64,000 nucleotides of DNA. Source: a virus. Lineage: Duplodnaviria > Caudoviricetes. The stretch spans positions 64,252 through 128,251 of the IMG/VR virus record IMGVR_UViG_3300025390_000003; one strand, 5' to 3'. Shown here one piece after another: positions 1-8,599 of this stretch. Both the position numbers and the translations under genes were made by a program. The notes below the pieces were generated by a model. That model was given only the letters and a program-made list of their open reading frames with translations, did not search any database and had not been told where the DNA came from. The first letter of the stretch is position 1. The number at the start of each line of letters is the position of its first letter.

Positions 1-1296
1 TTTACTGCTCGTTATGATATCAAATGTTGTAAATGATTTTAACATATCACTTATTTCAATTTCTGGTTTGGATATTGATATTTTACTACATCTTGGACAT
101 CTAACATCAAATGCAACCTCTCTGGTATACACAAATTCACAAATACTGCATTTAAAATCTATCTCTCCAGTAGATATATAATGAGATTTATCAGTTAACA
201 TTTTTTCCGTTCTATTCTGCATTCTATCTTCCCAAATATCAAAACTCTTATCTCGAATAGATATTATTGCATTTTTTCGATTTCTTTCTACATTTACCTT
301 TGCTGAACAATTTACAGAACAACATTCAGAATATCCTTTATCAAATGTATTAAATCTGACAATTTTATCATTACAATAACTACATATCGGGATACTATCA
401 AGATTATTGTGTAGTAAATATATCCGTTCATTAAATTTTATATTTTTTCTTTGTATGTTTCTTGTATGATATATGATACTCTTATACAATCGTAAATCTA
501 AATTGAATATACTTGTATAAAATGAGTGTGATGTAACTTTATCAACCCATCCTTTTATACCTTTTATTGTATCTTCCTTAGATAGAAATTCACAACTTTC
601 TGATAATTTAGCTGCTTTATTTTTTTTATGCTCTATTTGAATGCAATTAAAATTTTTACATTTCCCATAGCCTTTTTGTATGGATAAAAATGGTAATATT
701 TCATTACAATTTTCACACTTACACTTTTTTGTATTATGTATCATCAAATATATACCTTCACTAAAATCTTCAGAATATTTTTTAATTACAAAATTATACC
801 ACTTTGGATGTTTATATATAAAATGCACCTTTAAATCGTTTAATGATCTATTAGAAATATACGATAGAATATCTTTTTCAACTACAGTAGAAATATCCGT
901 TTTTAAAGCATCATCGATTAACCCCCTTTGAATATCTGAAGAACATATATTTAATCCCTTTCTAGTATTCCCTCTTCTAATTAACATTTCAGTGTCTTTA
1001 TGTGTGCATTTCTTCGAGCAATATTTATTGTATTCCCATTTTCTATTTACACCAAATATTGGAATAACATTACCGCACGATTTACACAACGGAAGGGTTT
1101 TCATATCACATACATAATGATACAACAATTGTGATTTATTAATAATATCTAAATTATTATACTTCCCAAAATTTATAATATCATTCTCTAATGTTATATA
1201 TTTTTTATATAACTCTTTTAAAAAAAATTGTTTATGTATTTTTCTATACTCGATAACTTGTTGTTTATCTAAAACCTCATATAATTCAGTTTTCAT
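1..1296 (-). CDS. Putative free-standing homing endonuclease with three Zn-finger repeats (3' end runs off the window)
   Basis: Not in the ORF track. Manual translation from ATG at 1296 (MKTELYEVLDK...) stays open to position 1. Repeated CxxC...GY...C motifs (e.g. PICSYCNDKIVRFNTFDKGYSECCSVNC) and CPRC...SKPEIEI resemble the N-terminal part of 6431..7708. Confidence 0.7.
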   Translation of the reverse strand, partial: MKTELYEVLDKQQVIEYRKIHKQFFLKELYKKYITLENDIINFGKYNNLDIINKSQLLYHYVCDMKTLPLCKSCGNVIPIFGVNRKWEYNKYCSKKCTHKDTEMLIRRGNTRKGLNICSSDIQRGLIDDALKTDISTVVEKDILSYISNRSLNDLKVHFIYKHPKWYNFVIKKYSEDFSEGIYLMIHNTKKCKCENCNEILPFLSIQKGYGKCKNFNCIQIEHKKNKAAKLSESCEFLSKEDTIKGIKGWVDKVTSHSFYTSIFNLDLRLYKSIIYHTRNIQRKNIKFNERIYLLHNNLDSIPICSYCNDKIVRFNTFDKGYSECCSVNCSAKVNVERNRKNAIISIRDKSFDIWEDRMQNRTEKMLTDKSHYISTGEIDFKCSICEFVYTREVAFDVRCPRCSKISISKPEIEISDMLKSFTTFDIITSSK

Positions 1297-1331
1297 ATAC
1301 ATATAATTATCACATTTTTACATTATAACAA

Positions 1332-1369
1332 CAAAAACGCTACTAATAAAAAATATTAGTAGCGTTTTG
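1332..1369 (-). terminator. Intrinsic terminator after tail sheath gene
   Basis: Inverted repeat aaaacgctactaata/tattagtagcgtttt with T-tracts, just past the gp18 stop. Confidence 0.8.
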
Positions 1370-1391
1370 ATATTTTATCTAATTTCTGATA

Positions 1392-3509
1392 TTACCCAAC
1401 CAATTCTTGGAAGTTTTGGCTGGTTCTAGTAGCCACGAAATTTATTAGGATAAATTCTGCTGCCCTAACTGGCTTTAAATATATATCCACATGCAATTCA
1501 TTTGCATCGATAGAATCCGGGGTGTTGTTCCTAGAGTCGCAAACCACCAAATAATCGTATACCCCTTGAGTGTTCTTTGCGTTTTCAAATATTGGTGTTA
1601 ATGCATTTACAACTCTGGTTCTAGTGAAATCTGTGTTTGGTTCAAACACAAAGTATTTCATTATATCCTGTGTGGATTTTTCAAGAGATAGGAACAATCT
1701 ACGAACATTTACACGATCAAAAGCGGATGGTTTCTTTTGAAGGGTTTTTTGTCCGTATACCACATATCCATCATTAGGGAAGAACACCACTGGATTAATA
1801 GAAATAGTATATAAGAAATCTCTTTGTTTCTGGTTAGGATTGAAAGCGATATCTGTAATACCTTTAACTATTCCTCTAGTAAGACCAGCAGGAGCAATCC
1901 AAGGGTATGTTGCTTTATCAGAATTTGCGTATATATTAGCAGCAAATCCAGAGAAAGGACACCAGAATTGTTTATCAGAATTTGCATCATACACTTTAAC
2001 CCAATTTCCGTAGGTAGCAGCATAATTACTATTCGTTCCACCAAATAAGGTTTTCAATGGAGTATAAACATTTTGAGAAAAGGTATTTCCAGGAATTGAA
2101 ACTATCTTTGTATCACTACCATTAATAAAGATTTGGCGTAATGGATCAACAATAATCATACAATCCTTTCTGGTTTCGCTAGTGAAAGCATCATATAATC
2201 CATAAACTGAAGACCAAGATTGATAACATGGTGCGAAAGCAGAAGATAATTGAGTGATGTCAACATACACAGAATCATCATATATTCCACTTACTGCATT
2301 TGCTGCTATTGTAGTAAGACCCGCATCAACAACGATATCTAATGGATAAATTTCAGGATTATCCACTAAAGAAAGAGCGCGATCAACTTTACTAGCAACA
2401 TTTCCAATATCGTTATAGTTTACATTAGAAACTACTGGAGTATAAACACCTTCTGCAAACAATGCTTTAGCGGAACCATCAACACTAACAGAGGATAATG
2501 GATTGTTTGTGCTTAAGCTTGTCCAAGAAGTGTGTTTAGATATTGCAGGATTCACAAGCAATGTCAAATTTGAAGAACTATTATTAACAATATCCGACAA
2601 GTAGAAAGAGCGAGGAATACCACCTTGGGATGTTGATGTTTTCTTATTCGCATCCAAAGAACCGATACGACTTTCAACTAATGATATTGACAACATTTGT
2701 GGATCATATATGGATTGACGAACTTTAAATAAATTCAAAATCAAACTGTCTTGATAATATGAATCACCGAAATCGAATAATGGAGTAGTTTCAATTATTT
2801 CAGATACAGAATTGTTACTTCCTCCGATATTAGAACCAGAAAGATTAAACGCCAACTTAGATGTTGGTAATGTATACCAATTTGTTAATGTATCGCCAGT
2901 ATTCACTAAACTATACATACTAGTCACAGCAGTAAATGAAGTATCAGGTCCTAAGTCTGTATTATCTTTCAGAGAAATGTAATATCCCTCGAAAATATCG
3001 TTAATCGTTGTTTGGCTATCGTTGATTATGATAATACCCGCGTTTGCATTAACAGTATCCCATGATGCTGCTGTTGTTGAGCTTGAAATGCTACTCCATG
3101 CAAAATTATTCTGTGCTAATTGATTATATTCAGCATTGCTTAAAGTATATTGAGATGGGTTTCCTATTGTAAATCCCCCTGTTGAAGATGCGACAGGATA
3201 GAATAATGCACTATAGCTATCAGAAAATCCTAATCCAGCAGCGGAACCATAGGGTAAACGTGTGGTTAATAAATTTCCTGCGGATTGCACGACTTGTTTT
3301 GCAGATTGATAAAAATATCTTTCTGCTGCATTTGTAGGAAGACCGAAAATCTGTTCAAATTCCGAAATAGTGGAAATAGAAACAACTTCGTCCGTAGGTC
3401 CTTGGGAAGCAAACCCCATAACATATACATTAGTTCCTACCACTGTTTGAGTAGTATCGGATAAGTCAATTTCTGTGATTTGAACACCTGGTGAATTAAT
3501 AGTTCTCAT
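1392..3509 (-). CDS. gp18: Tail sheath protein (T4 gp18-like)
   Basis: N-terminal SPGVQITEIDLS; C-terminal WIAPAGLTRG, AFDRVNVRRLF, FVFEPN, DIYLKPVRAAEFI. Confidence 0.97.
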   Translation of the reverse strand: MRTINSPGVQITEIDLSDTTQTVVGTNVYVMGFASQGPTDEVVSISTISEFEQIFGLPTNAAERYFYQSAKQVVQSAGNLLTTRLPYGSAAGLGFSDSYSALFYPVASSTGGFTIGNPSQYTLSNAEYNQLAQNNFAWSSISSSTTAASWDTVNANAGIIIINDSQTTINDIFEGYYISLKDNTDLGPDTSFTAVTSMYSLVNTGDTLTNWYTLPTSKLAFNLSGSNIGGSNNSVSEIIETTPLFDFGDSYYQDSLILNLFKVRQSIYDPQMLSISLVESRIGSLDANKKTSTSQGGIPRSFYLSDIVNNSSSNLTLLVNPAISKHTSWTSLSTNNPLSSVSVDGSAKALFAEGVYTPVVSNVNYNDIGNVASKVDRALSLVDNPEIYPLDIVVDAGLTTIAANAVSGIYDDSVYVDITQLSSAFAPCYQSWSSVYGLYDAFTSETRKDCMIIVDPLRQIFINGSDTKIVSIPGNTFSQNVYTPLKTLFGGTNSNYAATYGNWVKVYDANSDKQFWCPFSGFAANIYANSDKATYPWIAPAGLTRGIVKGITDIAFNPNQKQRDFLYTISINPVVFFPNDGYVVYGQKTLQKKPSAFDRVNVRRLFLSLEKSTQDIMKYFVFEPNTDFTRTRVVNALTPIFENAKNTQGVYDYLVVCDSRNNTPDSIDANELHVDIYLKPVRAAEFILINFVATRTSQNFQELVG

Positions 3510-3551: not shown

Positions 3552-4130
3552 CTATAACAGAGAAGGTGTCAATAAATTAAAGTTGACCCTACTAAATTGG
3601 AAGGTAACAGTAGATTCTATCCAGTCATTAGTTCTATTATCATACGTAATTCCACCTAATCCAGTAATAAAAGCATTTACATATACCCAAGATGCAATTT
3701 TTTGATTATATTCATCTAACGCATAAACAGAAAAAGAAGTTTGATATTCGGGTGTCATACTAGTTTTTGATGTTGTAGGACTTCCACCATAAATACTTCC
3801 ATCCGCAGTATTCAAAACATTCAACCATTGCCATAACACATAATAGTTCACAAATTTATTGTCTACCACAAAATTTATTGTAATTGGTTCATAATTTGGG
3901 CGAGTGTAGCTACTAATATTTGATACCTGCCCACCAAAAGGTAAAGCAATAGAAGGAACTGCAATCGTTGGAACTACTGTACCATACACACTAAAATTTA
4001 AAGTATCTAATCCATTCGGAATAGACAAATTAGGCGTATTCTTCATAACAATAGGTAAATCCAATACAAGTAAAAATTTGTCTTTACTTGCCCTATTAAG
4101 CACCGATTGTTCAGTTGGATTTACGTTCAT
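3552..4130 (-). CDS. Tail completion / tube terminator protein (T4 gp3-like, tail-tube fold)
   Basis: YEPITINFVVDNKFVNYYVLWQW and TVTFQF motifs; adjacent to sheath gene. Confidence 0.7.
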   Translation of the reverse strand: MNVNPTEQSVLNRASKDKFLLVLDLPIVMKNTPNLSIPNGLDTLNFSVYGTVVPTIAVPSIALPFGGQVSNISSYTRPNYEPITINFVVDNKFVNYYVLWQWLNVLNTADGSIYGGSPTTSKTSMTPEYQTSFSVYALDEYNQKIASWVYVNAFITGLGGITYDNRTNDWIESTVTFQFSRVNFNLLTPSLL

Positions 4131-4145
4131 TTGTATTATTTAACT

Positions 4146-6419
4146 TTATGGTTGATATATAGTAAACCCAAGTTCCATTAATCCATCAATATCCAAATCA
4201 TCCGTATGTAAATCATTACCACCCATTATTGGTTGATATTTTTGTGGGGTATTTGGTTTAGGATAATTTGATGGAACTATTATTTCTCCTGTCGTGAGGT
4301 CTTTTAATGAATATAACGTATCATCAGTATATTCCATATCAGTTCTCGATACTTTCAATGGTTTATTCTGATCATCAAATTCATCTACAGTAAAGTATTG
4401 TTGGCATACATCAGTTTCTAATACAAATAATGCCCAAACTAATGCCATAACAAAATCATCTCTGTGTTTATCCGTCTTTTTGCGATACGTTCCATTCGGA
4501 TATTTCACGAAGGTTTCAAATTCTGATATTGTATCATCATCATTTATTTTAACCGCATGTAAGAAATTAATCCAATACCTCAAATTACTAACAGCATTAA
4601 AACGTAAATTATTGTGACTAAAAATTCCCAAATGTCTTGTATTTTTTCTTCCATCAGTGCTAGAAGTTTTGCTATAACTTACAATTTTATCATAATAATG
4701 GGTGTGAACTAATGCATCCAATATCTGCGCACCACAATTATTTCTTTCTATCAATAAAGGCGGATTTCCCCAAGATGCTGCCAAATTCACCAATCTATTC
4801 GCAAAATGATATGGTTCTAACACATTTGTTCCATATACCGCAACTTGTTTAATTTCTGTCAAATCCGTAATATCTAAAACTTGAGCGGTTGATGCAGCCC
4901 TTCCAATACCTTCCCCAACATCAACACCAATAACATATATCCTATCTTTATCAGGCATCTCATACACTTTATATGTAGAATCTGATGATGCCCATAAAGT
5001 AGGTTTCTTATTGGTTTTAAACTCCTCTATAACCTCCGCACCCACTGCACCATCCGAAGAGTCTAAGAATTTATTTCCAAATTCCTGCTCAAATGCTGCT
5101 TCTGACCCCAAAGCTGAAATCATACCCGCTTTCCATTTTTCATTTCTACCAGGAACATCCCACCAATCAATCCTTTCAGTCTTCCAATCATTCTTCCCCT
5201 TTTCTGCATCACTATAAATTTCGTAAAATTTATTAAAAACCCCATTTGGCGTGCTCACCATGAAAATTTTAGTTTTTTTACCGGATGATACTGTAGGAAT
5301 TACAGACTTCCAAAATTCCTCCATCAAATGTGTATTATGACTTAATACATCATTCGTATAATATTTATTTCCTTTTTTAACATCAACTAAATCATAAACA
5401 AAATCTTCACTGTCTTTTGTTATATATTCTACTTTTGTTACTCCTGTTTTAGTTTTTATATATTTATTTACTGCGTTTTTTGCAAATATTTTCCTTCCTG
5501 ATTTAGAAATAAAACAATGATTAGGAGATACTACTATACTATTACCACCTTCAAAACACACCTTTATTAATTTGCGGCGGGAATACTCAGCAACACCACT
5601 GAAATCCGACCAACCATTATGCGTTAATACCTCCCATTCTTCATTTTCTTCGTATCTAATTAAATCTGCGTTCATCTGCACAGAAGTTTTGAAAAACAAA
5701 TCAGCAATTTCTACAATTTTTGTTTCGCCCGTTATTTTATTTCTCAAATCAACTTTAGTATTTCTATTGACACAATCAATAAATGCTGCTTCATCGATCA
5801 CCAAAATACTTGCTGTATCCCCGCGAGCAGCAGTAGATGTAGTAGTTGATATACCAATACTACTACCGTTCGCAAAAACACAACCAGTTTTTCCCCATTC
5901 CTTAATACCAGGTTTTAAATAGTTGGGTAATAATTCATATGCAAGTCGTATCTTTTTAAAAATATTAATTGCAGTGTTTTCTTTATTTGCGACAATCATT
6001 ACTCGTTGATCATCCAAAAAACATGTATTCCATAATGCATATACCGTAGTAAGTGTTGTATTATGACTTAGAATACCATTAGAAAAATATGTATGTTTAT
6101 CGGATTTTAAAGAAACGTCATACATGTTTTCTGGTGGTAACTCTAATTTTTCCACACTTCTTACAATCTCAACACCAGTTTCTGTAATAATTTTATCTCC
6201 AACTTCTAAATCATAAACATATATTTCTTCTCCATTTTCGCCAATTACTATATGCTCATCCGCACATTCTAAAAAATAATTATCCGTCTCTAATTTCCAA
6301 ACATCATAAGGAATCGTCTTATGAACGGCTTCTATATCTTCCCATCCACTATCCGTCCAAATTTCGTAATTATCTACACTACGAGTATCTATAATCTTTT
6401 CATCACTAATATCAATCAT
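4146..6419 (-). CDS. gp17: Terminase large subunit, C-terminal piece (starts with split-intein IntC; contains a second cis mini-intein)
   Basis: Residues 1-120 are intein C-part ending SHN|TT; then Walker B LVIDEAAF, STPNG, EQEFG, GVDVGEG nuclease motif and DDFVMAL. Confidence 0.95.
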   Translation of the reverse strand: MIDISDEKIIDTRSVDNYEIWTDSGWEDIEAVHKTIPYDVWKLETDNYFLECADEHIVIGENGEEIYVYDLEVGDKIITETGVEIVRSVEKLELPPENMYDVSLKSDKHTYFSNGILSHNTTLTTVYALWNTCFLDDQRVMIVANKENTAINIFKKIRLAYELLPNYLKPGIKEWGKTGCVFANGSSIGISTTTSTAARGDTASILVIDEAAFIDCVNRNTKVDLRNKITGETKIVEIADLFFKTSVQMNADLIRYEENEEWEVLTHNGWSDFSGVAEYSRRKLIKVCFEGGNSIVVSPNHCFISKSGRKIFAKNAVNKYIKTKTGVTKVEYITKDSEDFVYDLVDVKKGNKYYTNDVLSHNTHLMEEFWKSVIPTVSSGKKTKIFMVSTPNGVFNKFYEIYSDAEKGKNDWKTERIDWWDVPGRNEKWKAGMISALGSEAAFEQEFGNKFLDSSDGAVGAEVIEEFKTNKKPTLWASSDSTYKVYEMPDKDRIYVIGVDVGEGIGRAASTAQVLDITDLTEIKQVAVYGTNVLEPYHFANRLVNLAASWGNPPLLIERNNCGAQILDALVHTHYYDKIVSYSKTSSTDGRKNTRHLGIFSHNNLRFNAVSNLRYWINFLHAVKINDDDTISEFETFVKYPNGTYRKKTDKHRDDFVMALVWALFVLETDVCQQYFTVDEFDDQNKPLKVSRTDMEYTDDTLYSLKDLTTGEIIVPSNYPKPNTPQKYQPIMGGNDLHTDDLDIDGLMELGFTIYQP
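5334..5774 (-). mobile_element. Contiguous mini-intein (147 aa) just after TerL Walker B
   Basis: DEAAFID|CVNRNT...VSPNH...VYDLVDV...NDVLSHN|THL; no endonuclease domain. Confidence 0.92.
6060..6419 (-). mobile_element. Split intein C-fragment (120 aa) of TerL, Thr+1
   Basis: Block B LECADEH, block F MYDVSL, block G NGILSHN followed by TT that completes Walker A. Confidence 0.9.
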
Positions 6420-6430
6420 TATAATTTTAT

Positions 6431-7708
6431 TTAATCATTATGAATAAAATCTAAACAATCTTGTAATATCTTTTGCTTGTCTTTATAATACTCCAATTCT
6501 TTAACATTAAAAACTTTACATTTTAATGTTTTTACTATTTCATCTTCCCGCATTTGATCATTTTCTACTCTATAATTAACTTGTTTATTTGCAATACTAT
6601 GCCAATACGCACCATTAAATTCTATGACTTTGTTTACATCTTTAATATAAAAATCTAATGATCTACTAGTTTTATGTGTCTTTACTTTATATTCGTGATT
6701 CTTTCCGTCCGTTGATATATTACCGTCATATATAGTCGCAAAATAAATTTCTTTGTATTCGGATTTTATATTATCGTATATATTCCAAAATAACTCTTGT
6801 GATACCTTGGAATAATTTTGTTTTGGAAATGATGTCAACCATTTTTCTGTTATCCCCTTTCGAATTTCTATTGCTTTGGTTTTGTTGCATCCACTTCGCT
6901 TCATAATAGCATCTATAGAATTTGTAGTCTGTCGTTCTCTTAACTTCTGTATGGCTTCTTCTTCAGTAAACCCCATCTTAGTCCAATATCCCTTTTGTGT
7001 AGAATTACATTGCGTGTCTTGTATGGTTTTACTAATCGCTTCACCACAGTCACTTCTGTTATTATATTTGTTATGATAATTCACACCACAACTAGTATTA
7101 TAACAAAATTTATTATATCCCTCCCAAATACTATTAAATTTCATTAAATTGCCACACCATAAACATTTTCCCAATTCATTAGTTTTTTGTATATGTTTAT
7201 GATAATATGATTCTTCTGAATCATGAACGTCTTTAATATGTTTCGATAAATCTTCTTTTCTATAATATGAAATTCCACATTCTTTACATACAATATTAAA
7301 ATTTTCTGGTAAAAGCTTTCCACTTTTTATTTTTTTCTGTTGATTACTATGAGTAATACAACACGCTCCAACTGCAATCATACTAAATGGTATTAAATTT
7401 TTACATGAAACCAAACAGCATTTAGTTTTCGATAATACATATTTATTATAAATTTCTTCTTTGTTGTGTGTCGTCTTGTTAAGAGATACTGATATATCCT
7501 TCCATCCTTCAAAATAAGAATTCAATTCTTCAACAAAAATATAAGAATGTAATAATTCTTTGGTTTTGTTTATATCTCTGTTATTTTGTTTATACAATTT
7601 TCTAACTAACGACCCCGCAAATAATCCATAGGTTTTATGTTGAAATTCCGTTAATTTTAATCCAGTTACTTTACAAATATAGGTTTTGTCCATACCTATA
7701 TTTATCAT
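6431..7708 (-). CDS. Vsr/DUF559-like homing endonuclease with Zn fingers, between the two terL halves (likely start 7693)
   Basis: C2H2 (CKECG...HIKDVH) and CxxC...GY...C motifs; C-terminal SKVSQELF...LDFYI...IEFNGAYWH; ATAAATA at 7705-7699 precedes ATG 7693. Confidence 0.85.
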   Translation of the reverse strand: MINIGMDKTYICKVTGLKLTEFQHKTYGLFAGSLVRKLYKQNNRDINKTKELLHSYIFVEELNSYFEGWKDISVSLNKTTHNKEEIYNKYVLSKTKCCLVSCKNLIPFSMIAVGACCITHSNQQKKIKSGKLLPENFNIVCKECGISYYRKEDLSKHIKDVHDSEESYYHKHIQKTNELGKCLWCGNLMKFNSIWEGYNKFCYNTSCGVNYHNKYNNRSDCGEAISKTIQDTQCNSTQKGYWTKMGFTEEEAIQKLRERQTTNSIDAIMKRSGCNKTKAIEIRKGITEKWLTSFPKQNYSKVSQELFWNIYDNIKSEYKEIYFATIYDGNISTDGKNHEYKVKTHKTSRSLDFYIKDVNKVIEFNGAYWHSIANKQVNYRVENDQMREDEIVKTLKCKVFNVKELEYYKDKQKILQDCLDFIHND

Positions 7709-7735
7709 AAATTAAGTAAATGTCCAACTTGAAAT

Positions 7736-8173
7736 TCATCCAACACGTTTATAAAAATTTTCTATCGTAACCTCTTCAGTTTCAAGTGTTTGTTTATTCC
7801 GAATAGTTAACATAACACCACATTTAAGGCATTTACCTACTTGTCTTGATGCTAAGACCGTAACGAACCGGTTCTTCGCTAGGCTTTTTAATACTCTTTT
7901 TTGAGCAGGGTAGAGTTCTATTTTTTCTTTACCTCTGTCGATATTTACGATATAGAAATGTTTTTCAGCGAAGTGTGTGATATCTTCCTTACATTTTTTC
8001 ATTTCCTTTACCATTGCAGGAGTGAACGCAAATTGTGCATTCTCTCTTGGTAATTTTTTATCTCCTCTATAGTATTGTCTATCACCTATAGGGTTTTCGT
8101 TAATTACATCATCTTCAATCTCTTTAACATCCTCTAGATAAGAATCTTCTGGACATGTGTTATCATCACTCAT
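7736..8173 (-). CDS. gp17: Terminase large subunit, N-terminal piece ending in split-intein IntN
   Basis: KCKEDITHFAEKHF, ELYPAQ adenine-binding motif, Walker A SRQVGK followed by CLKCG...(31 aa) and stop. Confidence 0.93.
   Translation of the reverse strand: MSDDNTCPEDSYLEDVKEIEDDVINENPIGDRQYYRGDKKLPRENAQFAFTPAMVKEMKKCKEDITHFAEKHFYIVNIDRGKEKIELYPAQKRVLKSLAKNRFVTVLASRQVGKCLKCGVMLTIRNKQTLETEEVTIENFYKRVG
7739..7831 (-). mobile_element. Split intein N-fragment (31 aa)
   Basis: CLKCGVMLTIRNKQTLETEEVTIENFYKRVG; block-A-like and similar to the start of the cis intein at 5774. Confidence 0.88.
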
Positions 8174-8194
8174 ATTAGTTTTATTTAACTAATA

Positions 8195-8599
8195 TTAGAT
8201 ATCTTCTTCTAGATTTCCACCTTCTCCCATACCGCCTTGTTCTGGATTAAAGATATTAAACATTGTGCAGCGCAAGTTTTCTAGTAATGCATCTCTATCT
8301 TGAGCGTTCGCAGCATGCATCATAAAAACCTTATCACCGTGTAGATCATATCCGATAGTCATATATGCTTTTAAGTATTCTGTGGTGATGTTATTTAATT
8401 GTGCGATATCGTCACTTCTATCTTTTTCTATTGAGACTTTATCATAGAATTGGATAAAAGCTTGTTTGATTAAGCTTTGCACATCAGCATCTACGGTAGG
8501 GGGAACATTTTCAGGAACTATTTTTTTAGTTTCTGTTTTTTTACGACTAATCTTTTTTTTCCCTGTCATTTTATTTTTATTTGGGTCATTAGCAGACAT
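8195..8599 (-). CDS. Hypothetical protein
   Basis: 134-aa ORF in the operon with a late-promoter-like ATAAATA upstream. Confidence 0.7.
   Translation of the reverse strand: MSANDPNKNKMTGKKKISRKKTETKKIVPENVPPTVDADVQSLIKQAFIQFYDKVSIEKDRSDDIAQLNNITTEYLKAYMTIGYDLHGDKVFMMHAANAQDRDALLENLRCTMFNIFNPEQGGMGEGGNLEEDI

Follow-up and report, generated by a model that had tools for sequence, protein, structure and literature searches.

The fractured genes described by Dassa, London, Stoddard, Schueler-Furman and Pietrokovski in 2009 (PMC2677866), among them the gp17 locus from Lake Gatun (GOS-TerL), consist of two co-oriented open reading frames (ORFs) that carry the halves of a split intein. In GOS-TerL, a free-standing Vsr-like endonuclease gene lies between the halves, and the interrupted host protein is the large terminase subunit (TerL) of a freshwater phage. 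The intein has Ser1, Cys+1 and halves of 37 and 115 amino acids (aa) (PMC11766414); by the comparison given below, it sits at Walker B. AceL-TerL, GOS-TerL and consensus Cat-TerL (PDB 6DSL) occur in T4-like TerL proteins and are split after the first helix, which leaves a short N-terminal half (IntN, 25-37 aa) and a long C-terminal half (IntC, 104-115 aa); for AceL-TerL and GOS-TerL this position has been termed the atypical 'S2' split point (PMC13014065). Inteins of this type have Cys+1 (PMC11766414), consistent with insertion at the Walker B site DE|C. Walker A is an insertion point in its own right, K|T in the P-loop being a 'classic' intein site known in mycobacteriophage TerL (PMC5050341). 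The TerL1-a P-loop inteins of these phages (Kelley et al. 2016, PMC5050341) lie between the invariant Walker A Lys and a Thr nucleophile, in terminases of the Terminase_1 family, and are contiguous and often contain nested endonucleases.

Here we examine a locus of the fractured type on the minus strand of a 64,000-nucleotide (nt) stretch of freshwater DNA (positions 64,252 to 128,251 of IMG/VR virus record IMGVR_UViG_3300025390_000003; hereafter the window). It makes up the latter half of the record, which is 128 kb long, is estimated to be 61% complete and belongs to a freshwater T4-like phage. As in GOS-TerL, TerL is divided into two ORFs with a Vsr-like endonuclease gene between the intein halves, and the S2-type split, the short IntN, the long IntC, the expected assembly and the class-1 chemistry are those of the AceL/GOS/Cat inteins. 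In contrast to these, the insertion is at Walker A (GK|T) rather than Walker B, the intein has Cys1 and Thr+1 and halves of 31 and 120 aa, and the C-terminal ORF holds an additional, predicted cis-splicing intein. The insertion spot is that of the mycobacteriophage TerL1-a inteins, from which the window intein differs in terminase family, in being split and in its free-standing endonuclease. We consider it highly likely that this is a working large-terminase gene, fractured and rejoined by a trans-splicing split intein. An earlier reading of the sequence alone (the original prediction) had proposed an atypically split intein at Walker A around a Vsr-like endonuclease, and this mechanism is very probably right; the locus is a real example of a known mechanism, one met very often in metagenomes, rather than a novel type of system.

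A large terminase gene divided at Walker A

The locus comprises TerL-N (7736-8173), a middle ORF (6431-7708, or 6431-7693 from its likely start) and TerL-C (4146-6419), all on the minus strand. TerL-N encodes 145 aa. Its 114-aa N-extein (7832-8173) matches PHROG 5989, terminase large subunit (E-value 1.7e-17), and ends ASRQVGK, the first half of Walker A; the 31-aa IntN (7739-7831, C115 to G145) follows and is closed by a TGA stop codon (7736-7738). TerL-C encodes 757 aa and begins with the 120-aa IntC (6060-6419), in which block B (ADEH), block F (MYD...H) and block G (ILSHN) are recognisable, and whose end, NGILSHN, is followed by TTLTTVYALW. The first part of the C-extein (5775-6059, aa 121-215) runs from Thr+1 and a second Thr, which complete Walker A, through the Walker B segment LVIDEAAFID, and matches PF03237 (Terminase_6N, E-value 9.6e-8). 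After a second, contiguous mini-intein (5334-5774, 147 aa, C216 to SHN362, with Thr at +1), the second part (4146-5333, aa 363-757 and the stop) supplies the remaining ATPase domain and the nuclease domain and matches PHROG 2, terminase large subunit (E-value 1.5e-33); TerL-C also matches T4-like terminases by tblastn. Joining the exteins yields SRQVGK-TT, an intact Walker A of the T4 gp17 type, and removal of both inteins leaves a TerL of 114 + 95 + 395 = 604 aa, a T4-type size. The intein halves thus flank the break exactly, in two co-oriented ORFs whose exteins are collinear with uninterrupted homologues; relatives P0012-P0016 read GKTT or GKST without interruption at the Walker A site. The sequence observations of the original prediction, namely SRQVGK followed by a 31-aa IntN and a stop, a 120-aa IntC ending HN|TT (SHN|TT in full) and the restoration of RQVGKTT, are confirmed in full.

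The stop codon and insert also appear in sequences assembled independently of the record. Both junctions can be read, free of indels and with one single-nucleotide polymorphism, in Logan contigs from four further freshwater runs (X8 record 11 spans 6715-8300, X8 record 10 spans 5900-6581 and X7 record 8 spans 7486-8186), and the identical locus sequence is present in many freshwater runs. With the same layout recurring in related contigs from other projects, the junctions are, as far as contigs can tell, no assembly error, and we give next to no weight to an artefact of assembly or sequencing. Three metagenomic contigs from other projects (L004-L006) have the same order of TerL-N, 420-aa ORF and TerL-C at 62-66% identity for TerL and 53-54% for the endonuclease, which indicates that the cassette has been kept through much divergence; their TerL-C proteins measure 605, 755 or 890 aa, with no, one or two additional contiguous inteins. 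Given a metagenomic fragment put at 61% completeness, the three ORFs might be relics of a terL that is decaying or defective, in a genome that is non-viable or satellite-dependent. We find this scarcely credible given that all three ORFs are intact, that other contigs keep the layout at 53-66% protein identity, that the sequence recurs unchanged across freshwater runs with the same TerL-N protein on 13 contigs (the longest 168 kb), and that cultured phages live with the same allele.

The residues on which splicing depends are conserved. C115, the nucleophile at intein position 1, stands directly after GK and does not vary among the split TerL-N relatives (10 of 10); in IntC, D54, H56, D101 and N114-N120 are invariant across 17 relatives, the block B His, the block F Asp and the terminal ILSHN included. 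IntC scores 26.6 bits against TIGR01443 (intein_Cterm; cut-off 15.6), and its blocks F and G end in the terminal His-Asn followed by Thr+1 (MYD...NGILSHN|TT). Contiguous relatives (P0113, P0126, P0129 and P0138) align collinearly with IntN plus IntC, and the split point falls just after their FYK helix segment, so that by sequence comparison the break is at the S2 atypical split point. In searches of the PDB, IntN alone found no match, and the closest match of IntC was VidaL (E-value 2.8e-4), with CatC at 0.06. A complex predicted from TerL-N residues 100-145 and TerL-C residues 1-135 scored 0.75, a value attained by 58 of 80 solved complexes and by two of 110 mismatched pairs, and the best control scored 0.01; the runs share at least 73% of contacts, with a partner predicted local distance difference test (pLDDT) value of 72. 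The predicted contacts bring IntN residues 113-128 and 137-145 against the block B, F and G regions of IntC. The same allele is present in cultured, viable phages, contiguous in Vibrio phage Kuja and Klebsiella phage KpS110 and split in Vibrio phage vB_VmeM-32 and Salicola jumbo phage SCTP-2, and the TerL of these phages must be made through this intein.

A docked complex would also be expected if the intein halves merely held the TerL fragments together non-covalently, giving a two-chain terminase without splicing, like the fragments of Aeh1 NrdA. T4-like phages do have split proteins that assemble unspliced (PMC3045599), and the predicted IntN/IntC interface fits binding in either case. However, an unspliced 151-aa HINT domain would then stand between the Lys and the Thr of Walker A, which is incompatible with ATP binding, and Cys1, the block B His, the terminal His-Asn and Thr or Ser at +1 are conserved family-wide. 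Mere docking would not need these residues, and their conservation speaks against a two-chain terminase, which we regard as very improbable.

In the trans-splicing that we favour, the three co-oriented genes would be expressed late in infection, yielding TerL-N, the zinc-finger/Vsr-like endonuclease and TerL-C. IntN, with two beta-strands and the first helix, would dock into the incomplete IntC to complete a HINT fold. Class-1 splicing would proceed by an N-S acyl shift at K114-C115 and transesterification onto Thr+1, and cyclisation of Asn120 and an O-N shift would then form the K-T peptide bond and rebuild the Walker A loop SRQVGKTT. The second intein would excise itself in cis after Walker B, giving the mature 604-aa TerL. 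The endonuclease would act as the mobility engine of the cassette, cutting the intein-less terL of co-infecting relatives near the Walker A codons, and repair of the cut gene would copy IntN, nuclease and IntC into the recipient allele.

Late expression was suggested by a late-promoter-like motif ahead of each ORF. TTAAATA occurs at 8182-8188 (its 5' base 15 nt upstream of the TerL-N ATG), ATAAATA at 7699-7705 (12 nt before the endonuclease ATG at 7693) and TTAAATA at 6428-6434 (15 nt before the TerL-C ATG, overlapping the endonuclease stop codon), all on the minus strand. Across the window, [AT]TAAATA is found between -45 and +12 of 23 of 68 ORFs of at least 100 aa, compared with 4.7% of random 57-nt windows, an enrichment at gene starts that exceeds chance. 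Of the separate late promoter that the original prediction gave each ORF, the motifs are present, at 8188, 7705 and 6434; their role may be that of a T4-type late promoter or of part of the translation start region. Sigma-70-like promoters were not enriched (23 found against 27.3 expected), and no terminator-like site was found between the three genes. A hairpin upstream of the endonuclease gene, as occurs at some fractured loci (Dassa et al., PMC2677866), was unsupported at this locus (z = -0.04).

Several observations weigh against a working, spliced terminase as set out above. The motif ends only 8 nt from the TerL-N and TerL-C ATGs and 5 nt from the endonuclease ATG, so near that it could be a translation-initiation feature rather than a promoter. 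No second terL was found within the 128-kb record; with the record only 61% complete, one could lie beyond it. In block B, H56 and D54 are invariant but the Thr of TxxH is replaced by Ala family-wide (ADEH), a change shared with the Ackermannviridae inteins of viable phages, and as a nucleophile Thr+1 is weaker than the Cys+1 found in those split inteins of TerL that have been characterised. Since split-intein complexes have already been solved, the predicted complex indicates likeness to them and is not proof of binding. Splicing of this particular copy is something that we infer from conservation, the predicted complex and the viability of cultured phages with the allele.

The endonuclease gene between the halves

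The middle ORF most likely starts at the ATG at 7693 (the alternative being the ATG at 7708), in agreement with the public gene call P0022 and with the starts of its relatives. The resulting putative homing-endonuclease gene (6431-7693, minus strand) encodes 420 aa, with N-terminal C2H2/Ros-MucR-type zinc fingers and a C-terminal Vsr-like domain of the I-Bth0305I type (about aa 310-420, nt 6434-6766). The original prediction of a Vsr-like nuclease gene behind TerL-N holds in both fold and conserved core residues. The protein has 89 homologues, several of them labelled very-short-patch-repair endonuclease by JGI; among 38 aligned homologues, PF18741 matches 26 and DUF559 matches 14, and the N-terminal part is recognised by zinc-finger models of the C2H2 and Ros/MucR types. 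Searched against the PDB, the endonuclease alone or a four-sequence profile returned zinc-finger proteins only, and the link to I-Bth0305I needed the 38-sequence profile, which matches the catalytic domain of that enzyme (3r3p) with an E-value of 0.0043, and a fold search. In the latter, the AF2 model (pLDDT 89.6) gave 3r3p as top Foldseek match (probability 1.0, TMt 0.68, E-value 0.026) and E. coli Vsr (1cw0, TMt 0.50, E-value 0.35) as second, with no match reaching an E-value of 0.001; the weak E-values reflect the use of the whole multi-domain model as query.

Residues D347, E358 and H365 are invariant across the 38 homologues, D379 is present in 31 of them and the Y363-W364-H365 motif is conserved. 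By alignment and model, the Vsr-type catalytic core (Asp, Glu, (F/Y)WH and Asp in a PD-(D/E)xK-like fold) is present, and the catalytic pattern is that of the Vsr-like homing endonucleases of fractured genes (Dassa et al., PMC2677866). I-Bth0305I and the Vsr-like EDxHD enzymes (PMC3239194, PDB 3R3P) share the fold and the motif pattern (D, E, YWH, D) and a modular build with separate DNA-binding modules. I-Bth0305I, however, is intron-encoded, whereas the enzyme described here is free-standing inside a split intein, has a zinc-finger N-terminus and is only weakly similar (E-value 0.0043). A candidate target comes from relative L007, which is intein-less at the Walker A site and has GGTAAA|ACAAC in common across the insertion point; this is likely to be the core of the homing site. 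L007 lacks a separate endonuclease gene and instead carries an endonuclease-like domain as an in-frame fusion ahead of IntC.

The intein could splice while the endonuclease no longer serves homing, being either inactive or recruited to another task such as the exclusion of competing phage genomes. The split allele does persist in vB_VmeM-32 and SCTP-2 with no adjacent endonuclease, and one relative has apparently deleted the endonuclease gene. At the present locus, on the other hand, the endonuclease ORF runs to full length behind a promoter-like motif of its own, and D347, E358, H365, D379 and YWH are kept across the 38 homologues; homing and the exclusion of competitors are, moreover, one biochemical act. 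We therefore judge a loss of homing unlikely and retain the endonuclease as the putative agent of the cassette's mobility.

Distribution and relatives of the Walker A intein

The Walker A intein differs in site, in its Thr+1 and in its similarity to CatC from the AceL/GOS/Cat inteins, which makes it another allele and another sequence family. An IntC at Walker B in coliphage phiS matches CatC (6DSL_B) with an E-value of 1e-13 in an alignment ending SH(N/A)|CE, compared with 0.06 for the IntC of the window, which suggests that the AceL/GOS/Cat family belongs to Walker B DE|C. The corresponding site of the window is empty, as the original prediction had it, but that site is Walker B VIDE|AAF (TerL-C aa 207-213) and not EQEFG. 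In phage phiS itself (Krischvirus, PP449093.1, L002:2009-5120), TerL is broken at Walker B IDE|C; gp173 carries a short IntN fused in frame to a nuclease-like domain, and gp172 starts with IntC. This is a Cat/AceL-type allele in a culturable coliphage.

Searches with IntC among GenBank phages found the identical insertion site already occupied in Ackermannviridae. The TerL mini-intein of this family (Vibrio phage Kuja, Klebsiella phage KpS110) lies at SGK|C...SHN|TT and is homologous to the window intein, with 36-46% identity to IntC and E-values down to 2e-27. It is contiguous, about 157-170 aa long and devoid of an endonuclease gene, whereas the intein of the window is split around one. A terminase intein had already been noted in the genome announcements of phages Maynard (PMC3868846) and Magnus (PMC6763660), and a tblastn search with IntC and the junction matched 350 GenBank phage records. 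At the nucleotide level, blastn of the 4-kb locus against phages returned one weak, short match only, and a scan of viral contigs with TerL-C peptide patterns returned no relatives.

The split form occurs in two cultured phages. In vB_VmeM-32 (KU160494), TerL-N ends SRQLGK followed by a 33-aa IntN and a stop and is annotated as hypothetical, and TerL-C starts with an IntC of about 118 aa ending SHN|TT. As in the window there is a second cis intein, but at DE|C (the Cat site) rather than FID|T, and, unlike in the window, no endonuclease gene is adjacent and some 78 kb separate the halves, which are on opposite strands (KU160494.1 79947-80624, minus, and 1102-3216, plus; L010 and L001). This TerL-C is preceded by some 1.1 kb of repeat-rich non-coding sequence in which no ORF reaches 40 aa. 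The halves could have been separated by a real rearrangement at the fracture, or their distance could stem from an assembly join. The paper on this phage (PMC6483233) makes no mention of inteins, and the record annotates neither half as one; more generally, GenBank labels such halves 'hypothetical protein' and 'terminase large subunit'. In SCTP-2, a middle piece of TerL lies between IntC and another IntN. Gene 267 of this phage (MF360958.1 256428-257321, L018) encodes IntC, the segment from Walker A to just before Walker B, and an IntN at LLY|C; its TerL is apparently in at least three dispersed pieces, the others lying near 216-218 kb and 429.4-429.7 kb.

The allele is far more widespread in metagenomes. 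TerL-N relatives form twelve clusters at 90% identity (that of the window included), each of 132-153 aa and with SRQxGK-Cys followed by 28-35 residues and a stop. Among 36 clusters of TerL-C-length proteins that match IntC and the junction, most start with IntC and five are contiguous. A census of IntC across 1.84 billion representatives (clusters at 50% identity) yielded 1012 clusters at E-values of 1e-3 or lower and 540 at 1e-10 or lower. Among its best 150 relatives, 126 begin with IntC and 24 hold the intein internally, the C-extein is TerL-like in 106, and the +1 residue of the cluster representatives is Thr in 94 (SHN|T) and Ser in 51 (SHN|S). The family is thus large, mostly split and equipped with a hydroxyl nucleophile at +1. 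In the remaining 44 of these 150, 40 of which begin with IntC, the C-exteins have no match to this TerL and may be other proteins or truncated or divergent fragments. One protein (P0142, 482 aa, NCBI) has AAA/Clp ATPase Pfam domains and an intein ending SHN|T.

The suggestion that a Walker A site with Thr+1 represents a new split-intein allele is therefore borne out as far as the distinction from AceL/GOS/Cat goes, and overstated as to novelty: K|T is a classic site, Ackermannviridae have a contiguous homologue, and the split form exists in two cultured phages and hundreds of metagenomic clusters. Its newness holds only in the narrow sense that no biochemical characterisation of the Walker A allele was found in the searchable literature. 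The value of the family lies mainly in a Thr/Ser+1 short-IntN resource with cultured test beds, and in its illustration of intein fracture and re-fusion. The characterised natural split inteins of TerL with a short IntN need Cys+1, whereas the Walker A family uses Thr or Ser+1, with a peptide-sized IntN (28-35 aa) and hundreds of natural variants to screen for protein engineering. The split intein of the window is a candidate Cys1/Thr+1 tool of this kind, and vB_VmeM-32 and SCTP-2 are cultured phages in which splicing could be checked in vivo.

Further insertion sites and an apparently re-fused relative

The second mini-intein, which was absent from the original prediction, lies five residues past Walker B, at FID|C...SHN|T (TerL-C aa 216-362). 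It shares 28% identity with IntC (E-value 3e-7), matches TIGR01445 (E-value 1.2e-4) and is, judged by this similarity, a paralogue of the split intein. L005 and L006 have it, L004 lacks it, and in P0012 it is split at this site. A stretch of about 110 residues in the TerL ATPase domain of this clade offers at least four intein sites, occupied by split and contiguous forms. These are GK|T at Walker A (split here) and, near Walker B, N|CLF (contiguous in L006, apparently split in P0015, P0016 and P0018), SIL|CIDE (split in P0013 and P0014) and FID|T (contiguous here, split in P0012). The three sites near Walker B (N|CLF, SIL|CIDE and FID|T/P) are occupied in relatives L006:7749-10421, P0012-P0018 and L007:6001-9387, and several of these inteins are atypically split, with an IntN of about 30-50 aa.

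One contiguous relative retains what looks like a trace of the endonuclease. P0113 (918 aa, from an ENA ERZ1426824 contig) is the closest contiguous relative at Walker A, and its two intein parts are joined by a linker that reads ...FYKDKESVINACIDFIRNEKF... in context. The linker segment YKDKESVINACIDFIRNEK matches the C-terminal tail of the endonuclease family, exemplified by the tail of P0055, KDKESTIKKCVDFILNEK, with a local alignment score of 70, where the highest null score among 1780 windows was 37, and about 16 residues of this tail serve as the intein linker. We therefore read the contiguous form as an apparent re-fusion that followed loss of the endonuclease gene by deletion. This protein-level comparison of one protein on one contig suggests that the deletion took place between short homologies, and the copy provides sequence evidence for movement between the fractured and contiguous states.

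The forms seen in this clade may represent successive states of a single element: contiguous, fractured by a Vsr-like endonuclease gene, dispersed as separate halves, and re-fused after loss of the endonuclease. The Walker A allele, as a Cys1/Thr(Ser)+1 split intein with a synthesisable 31-aa IntN, might also be orthogonal both to Cat-TerL and to its paralogue, the cis-intein 95 residues downstream on one and the same chain. That the clade documents the full life cycle of an atypically split P-loop intein and that the Walker A allele is an efficient, orthogonal natural tool is, as a joint proposition, tentative and more doubtful than probable.

The locus is flanked by further genes on the same strand. 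A small ORF (8195-8599) lies upstream of TerL-N, and TerL-C is followed by the genes for the tail tube (3552-4130) and the tail sheath (1392-3509), all on the minus strand.

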